Part shown: one piece after another, positions 27,212 through 37,800 of the stretch
How positions within the stretch are numbered: the stretch's first letter is position 1
How the letters are laid out: every line of letters starts with the position of its first letter
Source of the DNA: Candidatus Atabeyarchaeum deiterrae
Lineage (GTDB): Archaea > Asgardarchaeota > Atabeyarchaeia > Atabeyarchaeales > Atabeyarchaeaceae
Direction of reading: 5' to 3'
NCBI GenBank assembly: GCA_037310415.1
Contig: CP147780.1
Span: 128,001-192,000, forward strand
DNA length: 64,000 nt
Position numbers and translations under genes: made by a program
The notes under the pieces: generated by a model
What the model was told of the DNA's origin: nothing
The model's database searches: none
The model's input: only the letters and a program-made list of their open reading frames with translations

Positions 27212-28489
27212 TCAGGAAAGGAATTCCAAAGCAATCAACGCGTAGATCTTCGAGCACAGGGTCAGGTCTTTTTTCATAACGTACTCATTTGCAGAGTGAG
27301 CCGATTCAGAAACTGGGCCCAATACGACCGTCGGTATGCCTAGCTTGTTTCTTATGAACCGGGCATCTGTTCCCCCAGGCATTATCATGGTTGCCGTTTC
27401 TCTTCCCCACACTTGTGAAACGCATCTCTTGACAAGTTCAACAAAAGGTGCGTTTGGATCTTGGTAAGAGGGTTCGACTTTCTCAAGAGATTCTATCTTG
27501 ATCCCTCCGATACCAGACTTCTTGACGGCATTCTCAATTTGAGCTAAAGCGCTCTCCAGGTCCCCTAAAGGCATGACCCTAACATCTATCTCGGCTTCTG
27601 CATCATCTGGCACAACATTGGATTTTATTCCACCCTTGATCATTCCTGGGCTAAAGGTTAGGTGAGTATAGAGTCTTTCCATCTGATCGATGCTTAGACC
27701 CAATATCTTCGTAAGCATCGAGTAAAACGGTTTTCCAGCGTCAAACAGATTGATCAATCTCTGATCAACTTTGATGTCGGCTTGGCCCAGTTCTTCAATT
27801 CTTGGTATTATTCTGACCAACTTGTCAATCGCGTTTTCTCCCAAGAATGGCATGCTTGCATGAGCCGATCTCCCAGATGCTCTGACCCGGAGTGTAAGGA
27901 TTCCTTTTTCGGCAAGAGCTACCGTCGGACCCCACAGCTGGTTCATCGTTCCTTCTCCAACGACACACGCATCAACATCTGAATAGTAACCCTTGTCGAC
28001 AAGCAGCCCTGTCCCAAACTTACCCATTGTTTCCTCATCCGGCACAAAGTGAAATGTCAAAGTACCATCCAACTCGATATCCTTTTCAGCGATGACGGAG
28101 GCAGCTTGAAGCGCCGATGCTATGGAACCCTTCATGTCTGCGGCGCCCCTTCCAATTATCATGGAGCCTTTAACTACGCCTTCCCATGGATTCGATTTCC
28201 AAGCATCTATTCTCCCTGGTGGAACCACATCCATGTGCCCGTTCCAGACCAGTTTTCTCCTGGCTCCTCTGCTTCGTAACGAGGCGATGAGATTAACCCG
28301 ACCCTTGTCAGAAGAAACAGTTTCGACGGCGAACCCTTTGCCAATCATGTAGTCCTTGATGAATCCTGCTATATCGCCTACGTCCCCAGGAGGATTTTCG
28401 CTCTTGAATTTAATTAAATCGCAGCAAAGTCTAGTTATCGCATCTTCACGGTTCCCTATCTCATTAAGAACATCTTTGCTCATTGTCAA
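27212..28489 (-). CDS. M20 (ArgE/DapE-like) metallo-deacylase
   Basis: NGHMDVVP, GRGAADMKG, DEE, GE, GGTDA, AHSANE. Confidence 0.92.
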   Translation of the reverse strand: MTMSKDVLNEIGNREDAITRLCCDLIKFKSENPPGDVGDIAGFIKDYMIGKGFAVETVSSDKGRVNLIASLRSRGARRKLVWNGHMDVVPPGRIDAWKSNPWEGVVKGSMIIGRGAADMKGSIASALQAASVIAEKDIELDGTLTFHFVPDEETMGKFGTGLLVDKGYYSDVDACVVGEGTMNQLWGPTVALAEKGILTLRVRASGRSAHASMPFLGENAIDKLVRIIPRIEELGQADIKVDQRLINLFDAGKPFYSMLTKILGLSIDQMERLYTHLTFSPGMIKGGIKSNVVPDDAEAEIDVRVMPLGDLESALAQIENAVKKSGIGGIKIESLEKVEPSYQDPNAPFVELVKRCVSQVWGRETATMIMPGGTDARFIRNKLGIPTVVLGPVSESAHSANEYVMKKDLTLCSKIYALIALEFLS

Positions 28490-28552
28490 TCACAACCTCC
28501 TTCTGGTGGCCTGTCGCTCTAATCCGTGATTCAAGTGAGATGAGCATTGTAG

Positions 28553-29533
28553 TCATCTCAGCAATTCCCGCAGGTATAACTTGTGTTTGCCGAGTTTGCC
28601 TCCATAGTTTCCAGCTGAGATTTGAATCACTCCATTCATGTCGAGAACTTTTTCAATGCCAGTCTTCATTGCCATCTTCACTGCATCCAGAGACACTCCA
28701 TCAATGACGATCTCAGGGATAGAATTCACCTCAGGTGGAACTTTGGATCGGTCTTTTAGTCTATCTCTCAAAGTTGGGCAGTACAGGTAGTTTGTGGGTG
28801 GACCTATCGGTGGATAGTCCTCGGTGGCTGACCCAGACGGGCAAGTGTAGAATGGCGTAACAACGCCTTCAACCTGTTTCAAGGCGTCGATCACTCTCCT
28901 CCCAGCTTTTCGTCCAGTTTCGATGCTGTCACAGAGCAACCATAGATTCCCGCCTGAAACACCGATACGACATTGAATGCGTCTGTCGATCTTAAAGTCG
29001 TACCCCATCATCAAAGGAACGTTAACTATATCCCTGTCGTCTTCCGCGGAGAACCATTCATAACCTCCACCGCACTTGCCGACTCGCTCTTCAGTGTCGA
29101 TCACCATGGTTTTCTCCGTTGTCTTGCCGTTTGGATAATCAAACCCGAATACCCTAGTTGTGCTTATAGAGAGAACGTCCTGCCTTATCCTGATTGACAA
29201 CTCTCTGTAGAACTGCTCTATTTGCTTCGCGATTCCATCTTTCTCGTCATACCTACCCCAGAGCTGGACTATAACTCCTTCACGTCCATCTGGAGTCTGT
29301 TTCTTTGCCAACCATTTCTCAATACCACCCTCAACCCTCCCGACAACTACAGATGGGGTTGCCGTACATCTATATGCCGCGAGTCTCAACTCATCATGCT
29401 CAATCTCGGGGCTAGTTCTATCGCTGGGTCTTATGCCCCTATCTCCTGTGATCAGTAGTCTTGTGTAAAGACCTGCAAAAGCTTCAGCATATGTGTCCTG
29501 AACCTTCTCGTAACCTCTCACCTTGTTGGACAT
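28553..29533 (-). CDS. Divergent formylmethanofuran:H4MPT formyltransferase (Ftr-like); candidate GAR formyltransferase
   Basis: DTYAEAF, TPDGR, GVSGGN, TNxxYCPTL, EIVIDG, SAGNYGGKLG; ATG 29533 after GGAGAGG; directly downstream of purD. Confidence 0.9.
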   Translation of the reverse strand: MSNKVRGYEKVQDTYAEAFAGLYTRLLITGDRGIRPSDRTSPEIEHDELRLAAYRCTATPSVVVGRVEGGIEKWLAKKQTPDGREGVIVQLWGRYDEKDGIAKQIEQFYRELSIRIRQDVLSISTTRVFGFDYPNGKTTEKTMVIDTEERVGKCGGGYEWFSAEDDRDIVNVPLMMGYDFKIDRRIQCRIGVSGGNLWLLCDSIETGRKAGRRVIDALKQVEGVVTPFYTCPSGSATEDYPPIGPPTNYLYCPTLRDRLKDRSKVPPEVNSIPEIVIDGVSLDAVKMAMKTGIEKVLDMNGVIQISAGNYGGKLGKHKLYLRELLR

Positions 29534-29630
29534 TGAAACAGGTCCTCTCCTTTTCGGTTTGTCAGTCCGTCGTGCAAGCAAGCACTGACCAGTTTGGAGT
29601 TGGCAAGAGCACGGAAGTCAACTGACAGGT

Positions 29631-31028
29631 TCATTCTGACTTCGGTATCGTCTTCCACCTGGATTGAGTTCTCCTGATCATCTCTGCAGTGTTTCTCCCT
29701 ATGTCACTCCTGTGGCTTAGCGGACCTTTGACGAGTCCGGTGGCTTCCTCTGCTATTCTCTCAGCTTCTTCAAGAGAATCTGACACCCCTAACAATGCAA
29801 TAGCTCTTGATTTAGTCGTAAAGATTCTCCCTTCAATCGTGTTGACGCTCGCCCAATAGTATCTAGCACCGACATTTTTGAGTCGCGCTTCGTCAACCTC
29901 GACTTGTTCCTTATCCCTTGGATTTTCCGGGTATCCCTCTGGCACTAGGTATTTGCAGACAGTTGCCTCGCGGCTGAACTTCACTTTCTTGGCGCTAAGT
30001 GTTTCATCGAATATGCTCCAGTATATTTCCACGGGATCATCATTGTCTAACAAAGGGAGTACGTTGATCGCCTCAGAGTCACCTAGTCGAACATTTGCTT
30101 CTGTCATTATCGTCGATAATTTGCCACTTACTGGGCTTATACCTTTCATCATCTGCGCATAAAGGAACCCATGATATCGTTCTCCAGTATCCTTGACCAG
30201 AGCTGAAGTGATATTGCGAACCATTTGAGCAGTATCTTCATAGTCTTTTCTAGTGATGAATGGCATCAAGTGGTCACTTTGACTGTAGCTTCCCATGCCT
30301 CCAGTATTTGGTCCTTTGTCATCTTCAAAGGCGCGCTTGTAGTCTTGAACGCAAGGGGTGAGGATGACACTCTTGCCATCGGTGAATGTCTGAATAGTTA
30401 CTTCAAGTGGATGGAGCATTTTCTCTTCGACTACGACGGACTGGATCCCTCCGGGTTTCTCCTTGAGGATTGATTCGATGTATGCATTCGTTTCCCGAGA
30501 ATCTTTTAGATGTTCGCCTGTAAGCTTCACACCTTTTCCACCTGTAAGCCCTCCTGGCTTTATCGCAAGGGGGATACCCTTCCTCATCATATCATCCACG
30601 TATTTTGAAGCGTCCGACAGATTTGAGAATGAATTGAATTCTGGATAGTAATGTATATTGTATTTCTTCATTAGGTTTCTGCAAAAGCCCTTGTCCCCTT
30701 CTATCATCGCACACGCTTTGACTGGTCCAACGCAGGCGATCTTCTTGTCTCTCAGCGCATCTGCGACGCCTGAAACCAGCGGGTCTTCAGGCCCCACGAC
30801 TGTTAAGTCGATCCGATTCTCTGTGGCGAACTCAGCAACCAGCCTGGGATTACTTGTAACTCCCTTCGCATCAACCTTGTAGTTCGCCTTGTCGCGGCAT
30901 AGTTTCACAATACTTGGGTTCAATCTATCTGACAGTACGTACAACATAGATGAAGGGCTCTTGCTGACACTTTCTGCAATTGCAGCCTCTCTTCCTCCTG
31001 ATCCTAACAACAGAACCTTTGTTGTCAC
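29631..31028 (-). CDS. purD: Phosphoribosylamine-glycine ligase
   Basis: GSGGRE, VGPEDPL, GGKGV, QDYKR, GPNTGGMGSY, R.GD.E, HRSDIG. Confidence 0.95.
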   Translation of the reverse strand: MTTKVLLLGSGGREAAIAESVSKSPSSMLYVLSDRLNPSIVKLCRDKANYKVDAKGVTSNPRLVAEFATENRIDLTVVGPEDPLVSGVADALRDKKIACVGPVKACAMIEGDKGFCRNLMKKYNIHYYPEFNSFSNLSDASKYVDDMMRKGIPLAIKPGGLTGGKGVKLTGEHLKDSRETNAYIESILKEKPGGIQSVVVEEKMLHPLEVTIQTFTDGKSVILTPCVQDYKRAFEDDKGPNTGGMGSYSQSDHLMPFITRKDYEDTAQMVRNITSALVKDTGERYHGFLYAQMMKGISPVSGKLSTIMTEANVRLGDSEAINVLPLLDNDDPVEIYWSIFDETLSAKKVKFSREATVCKYLVPEGYPENPRDKEQVEVDEARLKNVGARYYWASVNTIEGRIFTTKSRAIALLGVSDSLEEAERIAEEATGLVKGPLSHRSDIGRNTAEMIRRTQSRWKTIPKSE

Positions 31029-31130
31029 ACTCCCTCTCCCTCAAGTTGCCCGTCTTGGTACGAGCGATTAGTTTGTCATTTCTTATTACTCAATGATTAC
31101 ATGACTTCTGGTTCTGGCTGCTGATTGTAT

Positions 31131-32570
31131 CTACTGCGTTCTGCCTCCGAGTGTTGCCTCGAGCAACTCTAGCTGCGGAGGGGCATTCAATGGATATTCA
31201 CCAGTTAGACAGGCCATGCATATCTGGTTGTGCGGCATGCCCATGCTCCTAACGAGTCCGTCTGTATTCATGTATCCCAAGGTGTCTGCTCCAACCTCTC
31301 TCCTGATCTCATCGACTGTTCTAGTGGAAGCGATTAGCTCTCGTCTTGTTGGAAAGTCAATTCCCATGTAGCATGATGCGATGATTGGGGGACAACTAAT
31401 TCTCAGGTGTACTCGTCGCGCTCCGCCGACGGTCTTTAGCAAGTTGACTATGAACTTGGAGGTCGTCGATCTCACTATGCTATCGTCTATTACCACAATT
31501 TCTTTTCCTTCGGTCACAGATCGGATCGGGTTAAGCTTCAGCCTCACCAGAAGCTCACGATCCTCGGCCTTTGGTGTAATGAAGATGCGTCCAACATATC
31601 TGTTCTTCATTAATCCTTCTGCCAATGGTATTCCCGACTCTTCAGAGAAACCAGCTGCAGCTGCTCTGCCTGAGTCCGGAACTGGAATGACGTAATCAGC
31701 CTTAACTGGGTGAAGCTTCCAAAGATACCGACCCAGTCTCTTCCTGACTTCCCAGACGGATTTGCCGTCGATGAATGAATCCGGACGGCTGAAGTATACA
31801 AACTCGAACATACACAGAGCTTTCCGCTGAACATTCACTGCACGTTCTCTCTCGAACCCAGTCTCATCCACTTTTATAATTTCCCCAGGGTGAACGGCGC
31901 TTATCACCTTTCCGCCCACAGCTTCGACAGCAGGCGTTTCTGAGGCAATTACGTGAGCGTACTTGTTTATCGATCCTATGCATAGTGGTTTAAATCCTCG
32001 TGGATCTCTCATTGCATAAAGTTCGCCTTTGTTGTTAAGGAGAACCATTGAGTATGATCCATCGAGGATATTCATGCTTTCTTTGAGCGCTTCAATGTAG
32101 CTGGCAGTCTGTTTTGTATTTGAAGCAATCAATCGAGCGAGAACTTCCGTATCTGTGTCTGTTGCGAAGGTTTCACCCTTCGCCTTGAGTGATTCTCTGA
32201 TTTGCAGGTAGTTGGTTATCGTTCCATTGAATGCCAACGCAAAGTTGGCGTTGGGAGACTTCAGAAAGAAGGGTTGAGCATTAGCGATATTGCTTTCTGA
32301 CGTGGTACTATATCTAACATGACCTATTGACACATTGCCAGATAATGCGTTGAGTATGCTCTTATTGAATACCTGTGTGACCAAACCCATACCCTTATGA
32401 CCCGTCAACTGACCTTGTGAACCATCTTTGAATATGTATATGCCAGCGCTTTCCTGACCGCGGTGCTGCAGAGATACGAGTCCATTATAGGTGTGGTGGG
32501 GAACTTCTTCAGGATACTTCCTAGAGTAGATGCCGAATACCCCACAAGATTCTCTTAGACCGCCACTCAC
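31131..32570 (-). CDS. purF: Amidophosphoribosyltransferase
   Basis: ESCGVFG, QHRGQESAG, GHVRYST, PVPDSG, VIDDSIVR and Fe-S cysteines. Confidence 0.97.
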   Translation of the reverse strand: MSGGLRESCGVFGIYSRKYPEEVPHHTYNGLVSLQHRGQESAGIYIFKDGSQGQLTGHKGMGLVTQVFNKSILNALSGNVSIGHVRYSTTSESNIANAQPFFLKSPNANFALAFNGTITNYLQIRESLKAKGETFATDTDTEVLARLIASNTKQTASYIEALKESMNILDGSYSMVLLNNKGELYAMRDPRGFKPLCIGSINKYAHVIASETPAVEAVGGKVISAVHPGEIIKVDETGFERERAVNVQRKALCMFEFVYFSRPDSFIDGKSVWEVRKRLGRYLWKLHPVKADYVIPVPDSGRAAAAGFSEESGIPLAEGLMKNRYVGRIFITPKAEDRELLVRLKLNPIRSVTEGKEIVVIDDSIVRSTTSKFIVNLLKTVGGARRVHLRISCPPIIASCYMGIDFPTRRELIASTRTVDEIRREVGADTLGYMNTDGLVRSMGMPHNQICMACLTGEYPLNAPPQLELLEATLGGRTQ

Positions 32571-32574
32571 CCTT

Positions 32575-34800
32575 CTAGCAACCTCCCATGGATCTCGGTA
32601 TGGAGTCAGACCATGCTTTGCGCATGATTTCGACAGCGCTATTCAGCACCCTTTTACCGCCTTCTAACATCGCCAATTCTCCCGTATCGGTCACTCTTCC
32701 AATCTCAGCCACTTTCGCTCCAATTCTAGATGCCAAAGAAAGGAACTCATCAAGATTCTTTCTTGAGACAGTCATTATGAACCTTGAGTTACTTTCAGAG
32801 AATAGCAGCTCATCGATCCTCATTCTATCCCTCGGAATATGTGCCAAGTCTATCTCAGCACCCAATCCACTCAGGATGCACATTTCAGCAATTGCGACAG
32901 CTAGTCCGCCGTCAGAACAGTCATGAACGGTCTCAGTGAGACCTCTACTGATTGACTTGTATGCTAATGTGATTGACCGCTTTTCCTCAGATCCGGCGAA
33001 TCTTGGGGGCTGTCCTTCCTGCACATTGTGTATGTAGTTATAGTATTCTGAACCACCTAATTCGCATCTTGTTTTACCCACAATGTAAATTGACTCACCA
33101 TGCTCCTTCCATGGAATGGTAGCCAAGTGATTCATATCTTCGATCAAGCCGAGTACTGCGACAACGGGGCTAGGCTTGATTGCCTTCCCAGTTGTTGAGT
33201 CCTCGTTGTAGAAACTGACTTTCCCACCGATGCATGGCACATCTAGCGCTCTACATGCGTCAGCCATTCCTTTTACTGCTTCTCGGAACTGCCAGAAGAT
33301 GTCAGGTTTTTCGGGGTTTCCAAAGTTGCAGTGATCAACCATTGCTATCGGCTGGGCCCCAACGGCGGCCACGTTGCGACATGCCTCAGCAAGCGCGCTT
33401 GCGCCGCCATGATATGGATCCAAGTAAGTGCGTCTGGAATTGCCATCGACCTTGACAGCAAGCGCCTTGTCGGTCCCGATCAGACGAAGAACTGCGGCGT
33501 CACCATCATTCGGCTTCAGAACAGTTCTGACACCAACTTCAAAATCATATTGCCTAAAGATCCATTCCTTGCTGGCAATGTTCGGTGAAGAAAGAAGTTT
33601 AACCAATGTCTCGGAAAGATCTGATGGGATTTCTGGTTTCTTGTTTTTTCTTGCTCCTGCAAGGTAGTTCGGCTTCTTTGCTTCTCTTCTAGCAACCGGA
33701 ACTTTGGTGATCATTCTCGCTGGTATGTCTGCAACAACGTTTTCGCCATATCTCACTACGACATTGCCTGTATCAGTCACTCTGCCAATCATGGAGTAAG
33801 GTAGTTCATACTTGTCGAGTATTTCGAGGACTTTGCCTAGTCCGGACGGTTCCACGACCAACAGCATTCTTTCTTGCGATTCTGATAGCATTATTTCATA
33901 CGGAGTCATCCCATTTTCTCTTAGCCGCACCTTTGATATGTCTACATCCATTCCTGTCTCTCCGTCAGATGCCATCTCACAGACGCCACATGTCAAACCT
34001 CCTCCACCCAGATCTTTGAGTCCACGAACAAGATCTGTTTCGATCGCTGCCAATGTTGCTTCAATTATGATGTTCTTAAGAAATGGGTCACCAACCTGCA
34101 CCGCTGGTCTATCAGCATCTGATTCTCCACCCAGAATTCTAGAAGCAAACGTGACTCCATGCAAACCATCACGCCCTGTAGAGCCTCCTGCTAGTACAAC
34201 AATGTCTCTGGGATACTTGGCTCCGCCGGCTATGATTCTTTCGCGCTTGGCTATTCCCACACATCCGACTCCTACCAAGCAATTCATTTCAAATGATGGA
34301 TCAAATTCGATTTCCCCTGTAACTGTCGGAACGCCGACACTATTGCCATAGTCTGCAATACCTTTCACAACGTAGTTAAGAAGCCACCTTGATCTCCCAC
34401 TTGTAAGGTAACCAAAGCGAAGTGGGTCCACAAGGGCTATTGGTCTTGTGCCCATGCTTAGAACGTCTCTAAGAACGCCACCTATTCCCGTTCCTGATCC
34501 ATTGTACGGATCGATGGCGCTCGGATGATTGTGAGATTCGATTTTGAGAGTTGCAGCAAGTCCGTCACCTATGTCAACTACACCTGCATCGTACCCTGGG
34601 CCAATAATCACGCGGGGACCAGTCGTAGGAAGAAGTTTGATTATTGGGCGAGACGACTTGTAGCATATGTGCTCGGAGAACATCGTGTCAAACATGCCCC
34701 ATTCCACTTCATTTGGCTCTCGACCCAATGCGCCCCTAATGAACCTGATTTCCTCCTCAGTTAAGTCAACTTTGACTGGGATTGGGGCAGACACGTTCAC
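32575..34800 (-). CDS. purL: FGAM synthase large subunit PurL
   Basis: SEHICYKSS, IESHNHPS, DLGGGG, SESQERM, GGKVSFYN, HDCSDGG. Confidence 0.97.
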   Translation of the reverse strand: MNVSAPIPVKVDLTEEEIRFIRGALGREPNEVEWGMFDTMFSEHICYKSSRPIIKLLPTTGPRVIIGPGYDAGVVDIGDGLAATLKIESHNHPSAIDPYNGSGTGIGGVLRDVLSMGTRPIALVDPLRFGYLTSGRSRWLLNYVVKGIADYGNSVGVPTVTGEIEFDPSFEMNCLVGVGCVGIAKRERIIAGGAKYPRDIVVLAGGSTGRDGLHGVTFASRILGGESDADRPAVQVGDPFLKNIIIEATLAAIETDLVRGLKDLGGGGLTCGVCEMASDGETGMDVDISKVRLRENGMTPYEIMLSESQERMLLVVEPSGLGKVLEILDKYELPYSMIGRVTDTGNVVVRYGENVVADIPARMITKVPVARREAKKPNYLAGARKNKKPEIPSDLSETLVKLLSSPNIASKEWIFRQYDFEVGVRTVLKPNDGDAAVLRLIGTDKALAVKVDGNSRRTYLDPYHGGASALAEACRNVAAVGAQPIAMVDHCNFGNPEKPDIFWQFREAVKGMADACRALDVPCIGGKVSFYNEDSTTGKAIKPSPVVAVLGLIEDMNHLATIPWKEHGESIYIVGKTRCELGGSEYYNYIHNVQEGQPPRFAGSEEKRSITLAYKSISRGLTETVHDCSDGGLAVAIAEMCILSGLGAEIDLAHIPRDRMRIDELLFSESNSRFIMTVSRKNLDEFLSLASRIGAKVAEIGRVTDTGELAMLEGGKRVLNSAVEIMRKAWSDSIPRSMGGC

Positions 34801-35507
34801 TGTGCACCTCCCGCGTAGTCTATCACCGAACGGAGTATTGACAACCCTCCCTCAGTCTTATCAGGGCTGAGGATTGCTTCAGATGATCTTTCAGGATGAG
34901 GCATTAGACCAGCAACGTTGCCCTCTGAATTGCAGACACCAGCGATATTGTCAAGAGAGCCATTCGGGTTAGACGCCTCAGTAAGCTCCCCTGATGTGTC
35001 AGTGTATCTAAACACGATCTGGTTATTCTTCTTCAACTCATCCAGTGTTTCTTCGTCTGTGAAGTATCTGCCTTCTCCGTGCGCAATCGGTAATGAGAAA
35101 ATGGCTCCCTTCGTCAAGCCTCGCGTGAAAGGCGACTTATTGTTTTCAACACGCAGATGTATCCATTTGCAGACAAAAGTGAGACAGGAATTCCTGAGTA
35201 ATGCGCCAGGAAGGAGACCAGCTTCAACGAGGATTTGAAAACCATTGCATATCCCGAGAACAGGTTTGCCAGCTTCAGCCATCTTCTTAACGTTCTTCAT
35301 AGCAGGGCTATAAGCTGCTATGATTCCAGCACGCAAGTAATCGCCATAAGCAAAACCGCCAGGCAGAACTGCGACATCATAATCATCGTCATCAAACTCT
35401 TTGTGCCAAATCAGTTTGGCATCGACTCTCAAAACGTCCTTGAATACGTGAAGTGTATCGTAACGACAATTTGAACCCGGGAAGTCTATGATAGCAACTT
35501 TGAGCAT
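34797..35507 (-). CDS. purQ: FGAM synthase glutaminase subunit PurQ
   Basis: FPGSNC, GGFAYGD, GICNGFQ, MPHPER; 4-nt overlap with purL. Confidence 0.97.
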   Translation of the reverse strand: MLKVAIIDFPGSNCRYDTLHVFKDVLRVDAKLIWHKEFDDDDYDVAVLPGGFAYGDYLRAGIIAAYSPAMKNVKKMAEAGKPVLGICNGFQILVEAGLLPGALLRNSCLTFVCKWIHLRVENNKSPFTRGLTKGAIFSLPIAHGEGRYFTDEETLDELKKNNQIVFRYTDTSGELTEASNPNGSLDNIAGVCNSEGNVAGLMPHPERSSEAILSPDKTEGGLSILRSVIDYAGGAQ

Positions 35508-35599
35508 TGATACTCCCCAACGCCTCTTATTGCAGATACACATTCAGAAGCGCTCAAGACAAGGGAATGCATATGCCAACCACCCGCAGATCTTTTCAC

Positions 35600-35860
35600 T
35601 CACACTCCCTTAACAGTTATCGAGTACGTGTGTGCTACAGGGTTGTATATTCTCAGCTCATTGACCATTTTGAAAATAGCTCTCTTCGCCTCCTCCTCAG
35701 ATGAAGCTTCCACTTTGGCCCTGAGAAGTTTGGCTGATCTAATAGATTTGACAATGTCAAATCCGCCCTTGTTCACAAGATCTCTGAGCACAGTCTCTCC
35801 TTCTGGATCCCTCGCAGCAGGCTTGTTCTCAATAGTTATTTCGACAGTGAATAGAGTCAT
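35600..35860 (-). CDS. purS: FGAM synthase subunit PurS
   Basis: DPEGET and IYNPV; GGAGG RBS. Confidence 0.93.
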   Translation of the reverse strand: MTLFTVEITIENKPAARDPEGETVLRDLVNKGGFDIVKSIRSAKLLRAKVEASSEEEAKRAIFKMVNELRIYNPVAHTYSITVKGV

Positions 35861-36302: not shown

Positions 36303-37202
36303 TCAGTGACCAAACCTCTGAAGCAACTGGTTGGGCGAGATAGCGTTCTTGGTTAGCCCAAGTTCTTCCTTGCTGAGTCCCATTGTTAACCCAAGCAGTT
36401 GAGTATAGTAGAATACTGGGATGTTGATGTCCTCGGCAAACTGCTTCTTTATGTCAAGTTGACCTCCTTCAAGTTGCATATGACAGAACGGGCAGCAATC
36501 GACTATGCAGTCGGCGCCTGCGGCCTTGATGTTGTTCAGTTTCTCCCGTATCATGTCTATCGCAACTGGCAGATTTGACGAGCGGACACCACCGCCTGCC
36601 CCACAACACATCATCTTGTCTTTGTAGTCCACACTCTTTGCCCCAGTCATTTCCACAAGGTCGTCAAGGAATCTTGGATTCTCAAATACGCCCCATCGCC
36701 TAATGTCACTAGGTTTGACAATGTGACAGCCATAGTGCACTGATGCATGCACTGGAATAGGATTCTCAACGAATTGACTGAGCTTATTAATTCCTATGTC
36801 AACATAAAGTGCCTCGATAAGGTGCTTGACATCGACCGTTCCTCTGTACTCCCTTACCCCAGCTTCTTTGAGTATCTTATTCACCCATTCTCTCGTTGCC
36901 TCATTATGTTTCAAAGTCTCATTGGCTTCTCTCAATGTACCGTAGCAACCATTGCACCCCGTGACTATGTCGCGCCCCATCTCTTCGGCAATTGTTATGT
37001 TTCTGGCGCCTGCAGCCAACCAGAATTTGTTGCTGAAGGATCTAATAGCGCCTGGGGCTGGACAACATGAAGCGCCCTTCATGTCAAGAAGTTCCACTCC
37101 GAGATTCGACATCACATTTCTGATTGATACTTCGATGTTTGGATACCTATCGGGTATCATGCAACCAAGAAATAGTGCGTACGTTGGATTCGAGTCACCC
37201 AT
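36303..37202 (-). CDS. hdrB: Heterodisulfide reductase subunit B
   Basis: FLGC, SCCPAPG, CNGC, HYGCH, CCGAGGG, CPFC. Confidence 0.95.
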   Translation of the reverse strand: MGDSNPTYALFLGCMIPDRYPNIEVSIRNVMSNLGVELLDMKGASCCPAPGAIRSFSNKFWLAAGARNITIAEEMGRDIVTGCNGCYGTLREANETLKHNEATREWVNKILKEAGVREYRGTVDVKHLIEALYVDIGINKLSQFVENPIPVHASVHYGCHIVKPSDIRRWGVFENPRFLDDLVEMTGAKSVDYKDKMMCCGAGGGVRSSNLPVAIDMIREKLNNIKAAGADCIVDCCPFCHMQLEGGQLDIKKQFAEDINIPVFYYTQLLGLTMGLSKEELGLTKNAISPNQLLQRFGH

Positions 37203-37209
37203 TCGAGGC

Positions 37210-37758
37210 TCACTTCCATTCGTATCCTACCAGTTTGTCAAAGTTGGTGAGTTTAGCTATTGCTCGAACTTGCTTCAGAGCTTCATCGGAACTAGCTACT
37301 GTAGGGGGTTTCTCAGGTAATCCTAAACTCTTTCTCAGGGCACCCCATTTGGGGTCGTCAATAGGTACGGCGTGACCGTACTCGATGAGTTTGTGAGCAG
37401 TGGCTCTGTGAGCTGGAAGAATATGCCCTGCCTCACATGCCATGTTACGGATTTCGATTATTGCGTTGACTGTCTCAATCTTGCGTGGACAACGTTCATA
37501 ACAAGTGTAACAAGTAGTGCAGAGCCATATATTCGGATCAGCTAGAAGCTCATCTTTAAGCCCTAAAAGAGCCGAACGTATTATCTGTCGGGTTCTGTAG
37601 GCTGTTCTTCTTCCTGAAGGACATGAAGCTGTACAGGTTCCACACTGGATGCATGCCTTGAGATGCTCAGCACCAGCATCTATTATGCGATTGATGAATT
37701 CCTGGTCAACTTGAGATGGCCTGATGGTTTTCCGTTCAATAACGGTATCGGTCGACAT
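37210..37758 (-). CDS. hdrC: Heterodisulfide reductase subunit C
   Basis: CIQCGTCTASCP, WLCTTCYTCYERCPR, GHAVP. Confidence 0.95.
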   Translation of the reverse strand: MSTDTVIERKTIRPSQVDQEFINRIIDAGAEHLKACIQCGTCTASCPSGRRTAYRTRQIIRSALLGLKDELLADPNIWLCTTCYTCYERCPRKIETVNAIIEIRNMACEAGHILPAHRATAHKLIEYGHAVPIDDPKWGALRKSLGLPEKPPTVASSDEALKQVRAIAKLTNFDKLVGYEWK

Positions 37759-37800
37759 TTCTCTCACTCTCCACAATCAGTCACACTAACGTACAGATTC

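Follow-up and report, generated by a model that had tools for sequence, protein, structure and literature searches.

An Ftr-like paralog in the purine gene cluster of Candidatus Atabeyarchaeum deiterrae as a candidate for the missing glycinamide ribonucleotide formyltransferase of archaea

In step 3 of purine synthesis, glycinamide ribonucleotide (GAR) is converted to formylglycinamide ribonucleotide (FGAR). The described enzymes are PurN, which uses 10-formyl-tetrahydrofolate (10-formyl-THF), and PurT, which uses formate and ATP. Several major archaeal groups have been without a known gene for this step since the survey of Brown et al. in 2011 (PMC3261824). There, Archaeoglobi, four Methanobacteriales (printed as 'Methanomicrobiales') and M. 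kandleri were found to have no GAR formyltransferase gene of any kind. The missing enzyme was called still undiscovered, and the formyltransferase Ftr is unmentioned. The problem was restated by Chadwick et al. in 2022 (PMC9012536), who found the same step 3 gap in the anaerobic methanotrophic (ANME) group ANME-1. Separately, they reported that ANME-1, ANME-2a/b, Archaeoglobales, M. kandleri and M. marburgensis have a divergent 'Ftr2'. The groups reported to have neither PurN nor PurT and the groups reported to have Ftr2 thus overlap, a link that neither paper draws. Here, we describe an Ftr2-type gene in the purine gene cluster of the Asgard archaeon Candidatus Atabeyarchaeum deiterrae. The gene lies in a window of 64,000 nucleotides (nt; contig CP147780.1, positions 128,001 to 192,000), by which we mean the whole stretch of DNA analysed. 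On the evidence of sequence comparison, this diverged Ftr paralog, of the 'Ftr2'/EhaS-like clade, has probably taken over the conversion of GAR to FGAR in a genome that has neither PurN nor PurT.

Two described proteins are closest to the product of this gene. One is Ftr itself (EC 2.3.1.101; structures 1FTR/2FHJ, 1M5S and 1M5H), including FhcD (6S6Y_D). The other is EhaS of Methanothermobacter, an Ftr look-alike considered unlikely to act in methanogenesis (Kaster et al., PMC3087415); the gene order EhaR-EhaS-EhaT is described in the same paper. Note that the placement of EhaS, and of the Methanobacteriales and Methanopyrus proteins, in Ftr2 is taken from the literature, where the second Ftr of M. 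marburgensis belongs to the Ftr2 group (PMC9012536). No paper in which GAR formylation is linked to an Ftr paralog or to EhaS was found in a full-text search, the coverage of which leaves out most subscription journals.

The locus occupies window positions 27212 to 35860 on the minus strand, where seven genes are arranged head to tail. An earlier note, made by reading the window alone, had described a purS-purQ-purL-purF-purD run followed within about 100 bp by an Ftr-family gene. This is confirmed, with a gap of 97 nt and every gene on the minus strand. The parts, in the order of transcription, are as follows.

35600..35860, minus strand: purS (formylglycinamidine ribonucleotide (FGAM) synthase subunit), which opens the run; PF02700, 65 bits; NF004450
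34797..35543, minus strand: purQ (FGAM synthase glutaminase subunit); TIGR01737, 316.5 bits, above cut-off
32575..34800, minus strand: purL (FGAM synthase II, which consumes FGAR); TIGR01736, 931 bits
31131..32570, minus strand: purF (amidophosphoribosyltransferase, step 1); TIGR01134, 469 bits
29631..31028, minus strand: purD (GAR synthetase, step 2, which makes GAR); TIGR00877, 355 bits; GARS_N, GARS_A and GARS_C domains
29534..29630, minus strand: purD-Ftr2 spacer of 97 nt, read from the sequence
28553..29533, minus strand: Ftr2-type formyltransferase paralog of 326 amino acids (aa), candidate GAR formyltransferase; PF01913 and PF02741
27212..28489, minus strand: M20 ArgE/DapE-family deacylase, 63 nt downstream of Ftr2; TIGR01910, 269 bits

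All five pur genes score far above their NCBIfam cut-offs. The Ftr2 open reading frame extends from 28553 to 29581, beginning at a TTG codon, and the recorded protein (P0152, 326 aa) begins at the ATG at 29533. Between purD and Ftr2, both a T-run and an A/T-rich box are missing, and a ribosome-binding site (GGAGAGG) is found about 8 nt 5' of the ATG. Hence, the spacer fits co-transcription of Ftr2 with purD, which we infer. The junction between Ftr2 and the M20 deacylase gene similarly has no T-run. The deacylase is a succinyl-diaminopimelate desuccinylase by KEGG call, and the two nearest Atabeyarchaeia relatives (L008 and L009) have it in the same place after Ftr2. It might conceivably act as a deformylase. 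We considered the deacylase as a partner for Ftr2 and rejected it, since the linkage is limited to Atabeyarchaeia. At the other end of the run, directly upstream of purS, are hdrC and hdrB (window positions 36303-37776, minus strand), which encode heterodisulfide reductase subunits. The order hdrC/hdrB-purS is also shared with the two nearest relatives.

The genome is one closed contig of 2,756,679 bp, with an estimated completeness of 97%. Its nearest relatives among public genomes are Atabeyarchaeia, an Asgard group. In 'Atabeyarchaeia-1' (CP147779) the Ftr2 orthologue is 74% identical and the order purSQLFD-Ftr-M20 is the same. The supplement of the genome paper lists the Ftr2 gene as gene 157 of 'Atabeya_2' (K00672) and assigns it as ftr of the Wood-Ljungdahl pathway. 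The main text mentions neither Ftr nor any link to purines.

The claim of the earlier note that purN and purT are absent from the window holds, and extends to the whole closed genome. Six-frame profile searches of the complete contig found neither PurN (TIGR00639) nor any Formyl_trans_N domain (PF00551). They also found no PurT; the top match, to carbamoyl-phosphate synthase, scored 42 bits against a cut-off of 502. The PurH AICARFT domain and formate-tetrahydrofolate ligase (FTHFS) were likewise not found in the closed genome. What the genome does carry is purSQLFD, one purM and one gene for PurP, the formate/ATP enzyme of purine step 9. The 'folate-free' archaeal purine pathway, of which this is a version, normally relies on PurT, but here PurT is lacking. 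Two ATP-grasp proteins (C1:1362237-1363526 and C1:1205734-1207002) were considered as a hidden PurT and rejected, with scores of 25-42 bits against the cut-off of 502. One is an MfnD-like ligase and one is generic, and neither is near pur genes.

Ftr homologues are encoded three times in the genome. The search for a second, canonical ftr proposed in the earlier note finds one in a fwdB-mtd-ftr-cdhA cluster, with scores of 415.6 bits (NF002554) and 394.2 bits (TIGR03119). By sequence, this copy is the canonical enzyme of the Wood-Ljungdahl pathway's methanopterin branch. Hence, because a canonical Ftr is present in the C1 cluster, the window gene, which sits in a pur operon instead, is dispensable as the Ftr of that pathway. 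The third copy lies outside the window (L019:6694-7608, in G000:C1:222001-237000), in a cluster for histidine utilisation, together with hutH, hutI and a glnA-like gene. It scores 294.7 bits on NF002554 and forms its own subclade within the canonical clade. This copy may use formiminoglutamate as donor and pass its formimino or formyl group to tetrahydromethanopterin (H4MPT). If so, it would be the methanopterin counterpart of glutamate formimidoyltransferase.

The Ftr2 protein has the two Pfam domains of Ftr (PF01913, 95 bits; PF02741, 151 bits) and no others. Its AlphaFold model, with a predicted local distance difference test (pLDDT) score of 91.7, has the two-lobe fold of Ftr. Superposition on 1FTR, 1M5S, 1M5H and 6S6Y_D gave template modelling (TM) scores of 0.79-0.88 at 28-33% identity. 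The catalytic residue of the M. kandleri enzyme, Glu245 (in YEIVING), corresponds in the alignment to E274 of the window protein (in PEIVIDG). Alignments show this residue to be invariant in both the canonical and the Ftr2 clade. The C-terminal SAGNYGGKLG motif is also shared with Ftr, and the other motifs quoted in the earlier note (DTYAEAF, TPDGR, GVSGGN, YCPTL and EIVIDG) are all present.

In other respects, the window protein differs from Ftr. Identity is 28-38%, and scores are below both NCBIfam cut-offs for Ftr (NF002554, 258.9 versus 297; TIGR03119, 181.6 versus 292.6). The divergent segments listed in the earlier note are all seen against 1FTR, 1M5S and 1M5H: ATPSVVVGRVEGG, RIRQDVL, GKCGGGY and an insertion, of 13 residues, after LLITG. 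Across the Ftr2 alignment, C154, C231, R117, Q90 and G152 are invariant, and R66, W92 and W198 are at least 90% conserved. Such Ftr2-specific conserved positions are different or variable in the canonical clade. For instance, C154 stands where canonical Ftr has a conserved Phe. Similarly, R66 and R117 are conserved arginines gained in Ftr2, and one Lys that is conserved in canonical Ftr has been lost. We tentatively suggest that the two gained arginines would suit an acceptor that carries phosphate.

Searching 1.8 billion representative proteins with the Ftr2 query returned 424 relatives only. Family trees of 96-101 sequences split canonical Ftr/FhcD from Ftr2, with Shimodaira-Hasegawa-like approximate likelihood ratio test (SH-aLRT) support of 99-100%. 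The tree proposed in the earlier note thus places the window gene outside the canonical clade, which holds the other two Ftr copies of the same genome. Note that 'Ftr2' denotes all sequences on the far side of this split; the tree has no characterised sequences, and its canonical side is recognised via the genome's own high-scoring copy. Within Ftr2, the window protein is in a well-supported subclade of proteins of about 320 residues, with members from Methanoliparum, an Altiarchaeota genome, Asgard family f15 and contigs labelled Bathyarchaeota.

To compare the distribution of Ftr2 with that of PurN and PurT, we used the window protein as query against a sample of 493 genomes. Matches were bimodal. 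For the Ftr2 type, the lower bounds are 45% identity and 235 bits; canonical matches had no more than 42% identity and fewer than 150 bits. In a few cases the gene was cut off by a contig end, so that its score was lower and its class was decided by identity. The counts are as follows.

Asgard: 201 genomes; 39 with Ftr2, of which 19 have PurN and 0 have PurT
Halobacteriota: 151 genomes; 64 with Ftr2, of which 7 have PurN and 0 have PurT
Thermoproteota: 141 genomes; 12 with Ftr2, of which 0 have PurN and 0 have PurT

Hence, Ftr2 is found in 115 of the 493 genomes. PurT is in none of the 115 and PurN is missing from 89. Conversely, none of the 54 genomes with a PurT-like gene has Ftr2. Since PurD was scored in two phyla, Asgard and Halobacteriota, these can be searched for genomes that have PurD and neither PurN nor PurT. 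There are 91, and 75 of them have Ftr2 (18 of 25 in Asgard and 57 of 66 in Halobacteriota). In Asgard families f1, f2, f15, f20 and f27, all 16 Ftr2 genomes lack PurN and PurT, and 15 of the 16 have PurD. PurD is present in 149 of 151 Halobacteriota; where these have PurT without PurN, Ftr2 is never found (0/13). Among Thermoproteota without Ftr2, 85 of 129 have PurN or a PurT-like gene. The distribution of Ftr2 is therefore exclusive with that of PurT and mostly exclusive with that of PurN. Ftr2 resembles these enzymes also in the position of its gene beside purD and purL, and in its proposed product, FGAR. It differs from them in having no sequence or fold kinship; the window protein matches Ftr domains only. 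The proposed donor, formyl-methanopterin or formyl-furan, would also differ from formyl-folate or formyl phosphate.

Linkage of Ftr2 to purine genes, which the earlier note suggested looking for in relatives, recurs in distant lineages and in differing gene orders. The order purD-Ftr2 is seen in three Atabeyarchaeia genomes. Elsewhere, genes for a HAD-like protein and a PfkB (ribokinase-like) protein flank Ftr2. The order is purF-purD-HAD-Ftr2-PfkB at L035 (Asgard family f15), at L045 (a Thermoproteota genome) and on the metagenome contigs L032 and L033, and the purD-HAD-Ftr2-PfkB part is in L031 and a Bathyarchaeota metagenome-assembled genome (L010). Often, purP, purM, purS, purL and purQ adjoin such loci. 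In L022 and L027, HAD-Ftr2 is tail to tail with purD, which is followed by purF. In an Altiarchaeota genome (L028:7001-12963), Ftr2 is 10 nt before a fused purSL, and then come purQ and a fae/hps fusion. One Halobacteriota genome (G216) has the order mch-purM-x-Ftr2. In total, there are at least four pur-linked arrangements, from Asgard, Thermoproteota, Altiarchaeota and unassigned metagenome contigs, and the one purM-linked Halobacteriota case. A link to C1 metabolism is seen at L026:6126-7963, where a gene with an Mpt_N domain (MtdA/B-like methylene-H4MPT dehydrogenase) overlaps Ftr2 by 4 nt. At the remaining loci, the genes around Ftr2 are uninformative.

The HAD-Ftr2-PfkB triad (L010, L031, L032, L033, L035, L045 and L048) is directly after purD in most cases, and in L031 and L032 neighbouring genes overlap by 4 nt. 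The name given to the HAD-like protein by the Joint Genome Institute (JGI) is 'energy-converting hydrogenase A subunit R'. Together with the PfkB-like gene, this gives the triad the make-up of EhaR-EhaS-EhaT, with which the eha operon of Methanothermobacter ends. In this respect, Ftr2-clade genes outside the window genome are like EhaS. The window genome differs: an EhaR-like gene and a neighbouring PfkB gene are both missing, and nothing links Ftr2 to an Eha hydrogenase. No HAD homologue was found in this genome (E < 1e-4), and its best PfkB homologue (C1:25995-26882) is about 130 kb from Ftr2 and two genes from purM-purP. The Atabeyarchaeia locus is the simplest form seen: Ftr2 alone after purD, without HAD or kinase partners.

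The PfkB homologue belongs to a second purine region (G000:C1:20073-26891; L034:6073-12891), in which purP, purM, genes for two proteins and the ribokinase-like PfkB gene are on one strand. The two proteins between purM and PfkB (431 and 389 aa) match no family. A TnpB-like gene (L034:16666-17997) is about 4 kb past the PfkB gene.

The triad raises the prospect that Ftr2 acts in purine synthesis in some way other than simple transfer from formyl-H4MPT to GAR. Ftr2 might formylate glycine or another precursor, with FGAR made by an altered order of steps. Alternatively, it might release formate for PurP, or work with HAD and PfkB in a multi-step, ATP-dependent system. The triad is tight, often translationally coupled, and found within pur operons, in correspondence with EhaR-EhaS-EhaT. 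In the window genome, PurP requires a source of formate, and neither FTHFS nor a PurU-type domain was found in that genome; the M20 deacylase after Ftr2 in Atabeyarchaeia would also fit a different purine role. Against this, Ftr2 holds the slot after purD in the window genome with no HAD partner and no kinase nearby, and it stands directly before purSL, again partnerless, in Altiarchaeota. Furthermore, formate release of the Fhc type would require an FhcA/FwdA-type hydrolase, and none is present in the four genomes described next. We consider these variants, taken together, unlikely.

Where checked, genomes with Ftr2 usually also hold canonical Ftr. In four Halobacteriota genomes (G216, G238, G292 and G278; loci L041, L043, L044 and L048), Ftr2 and Mch are present, canonical Ftr was not found and FwdA was not above noise. 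One of these, G292, is a contig of 1,560,622 bp. Hence, Ftr2 is retained where the methanofuran-dependent CO2 pathway was not found. Mch produces N5-formyl-H4MPT and, to our knowledge, Ftr is the only known consumer of this compound. With no formylmethanofuran dehydrogenase, a biosynthetic acceptor would be the simplest use of the formyl group made by Mch.

These genomes bear on a further explanation, in which Ftr2 is an ordinary second formylmethanofuran:H4MPT formyltransferase. Such an isoenzyme might be anabolic or differently regulated, and its proximity to purD would be incidental or reflect shared regulation. The retained Ftr fold and catalytic Glu are consistent with this, both Pfam Ftr domains are passed, the published annotation is ftr of the Wood-Ljungdahl pathway, and PurN coexists with Ftr2 in some lineages. 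Conversely, the protein is below both NCBIfam cut-offs and in a separate clade with its own invariant residues. Canonical Ftr is usually present in the same genomes, and Ftr2 is kept even where canonical Ftr and FwdA were not found. Nor would an isoenzyme be expected to show pur linkage in several orders and complete exclusion of PurT. We therefore regard this explanation as distinctly improbable.

Several observations weigh against assigning step 3 to Ftr2. First, the anti-correlation with purN and purT anticipated in the earlier note is complete for PurT and only partial for PurN, which coexists with Ftr2 in 26 of 115 genomes. These are 19 genomes of Asgard family f9 and 7 Halobacteriota. 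The latter comprise Methanoliparum, Methanolliviera, three more genomes with close copies (54-60% identical to the query) alongside PurN, and two small genomes. Second, in most Halobacteriota, and in Asgard families f2, f9, f20 and f27, the neighbours of Ftr2 are unrelated to purines. Third, a single transfer step leaves unexplained the HAD-like and PfkB-like genes to which Ftr2 is translationally coupled in many lineages. At the locus itself, the 97-nt spacer could contain its own promoter. Note also that genome counts are not corrected for kinship and overstate the number of evolutionary events, so that they describe patterns and not probabilities. Finally, function is predicted, from sequence, for every member of the clade.

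The Ftr2-like genes of Asgard family f9 (for example L037, G143:C1:338088-338972) form a separate deep subclade. PurN is in 19 of 23 of these genomes, and the neighbours of Ftr2 encode Hsp20, transglutaminase-like and PAS/GAF proteins. These genes may have a different function.

Also to be counted against Ftr2 are the 16 PurD-positive genomes that have none of PurN, PurT and Ftr2, which reflect either gaps in assembly or a further enzyme not yet recognised. Together with the two ATP-grasp proteins of unknown role in the window genome, they could indicate that another protein carries out step 3, for instance an ATP-grasp enzyme yet to be characterised or PurP acting promiscuously, and that Ftr2 has an unrelated biosynthetic role. 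However, the ATP-grasp proteins are neither pur-linked nor PurT-like, and this scenario leaves synteny and complementarity unexplained. We consider it very improbable indeed.

We conclude that GAR formylation by an Ftr paralog, as the earlier note proposed, is supported by the empty step 3 slot, the second ftr, the separate clade, the linkage to pur genes and the complementary distribution, with the activity itself predicted. The acceptor would be GAR or a related amine, and the donor formyl-H4MPT, formyl-methanofuran or another compound. We favour formyl-H4MPT, mainly because Ftr2 and Mch are kept in genomes without canonical Ftr and FwdA. It is also quite possible, although we hold this tentatively, that GAR transformylases have a third, non-homologous class in the Ftr2 clade, with N5-formyl-H4MPT as direct donor, such that purine C8 would come from the methanopterin pool.

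In the mechanism that we envisage, the ternary-complex chemistry of Ftr would be kept, with a buried, protonated Glu stabilising the tetrahedral intermediate. In place of the aminomethyl group of methanofuran, GAR would offer its own primary aminomethyl group. The reaction would then be N5-formyl-H4MPT + GAR -> H4MPT + FGAR, with formyl-methanofuran as a possible alternative donor. Transfer of a formyl moiety from formyl-H4MPT to methylofuran has a value of +4.4 kJ/mol (PMC6926001). By analogy, near-isoenergetic transfer to GAR should be expected, and the PurLQS step, ATP-driven and encoded just upstream, would pull it forward.

If our assignment is correct, one family would fill step 3 in Archaeoglobi, Methanobacteriales (as EhaS), Methanopyrus and ANME-1, and also in the sampled Bathyarchaeia-type, Altiarchaeota and Asgard genomes. 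EhaR, EhaS and EhaT would be purine enzymes and not hydrogenase subunits, and the annotation of thousands of genes labelled as ftr or as Eha subunits would be corrected. Because it is partnerless, and so the simplest form, the Atabeyarchaeia Ftr2 is a good first protein for expression and assay. Methanopterin would have its first role as formyl donor in purine synthesis, contrary to the accepted view quoted in PMC3261824. Models of carbon flow would change for methanogens, methane and alkane oxidisers, Bathyarchaeia and Asgard archaea.

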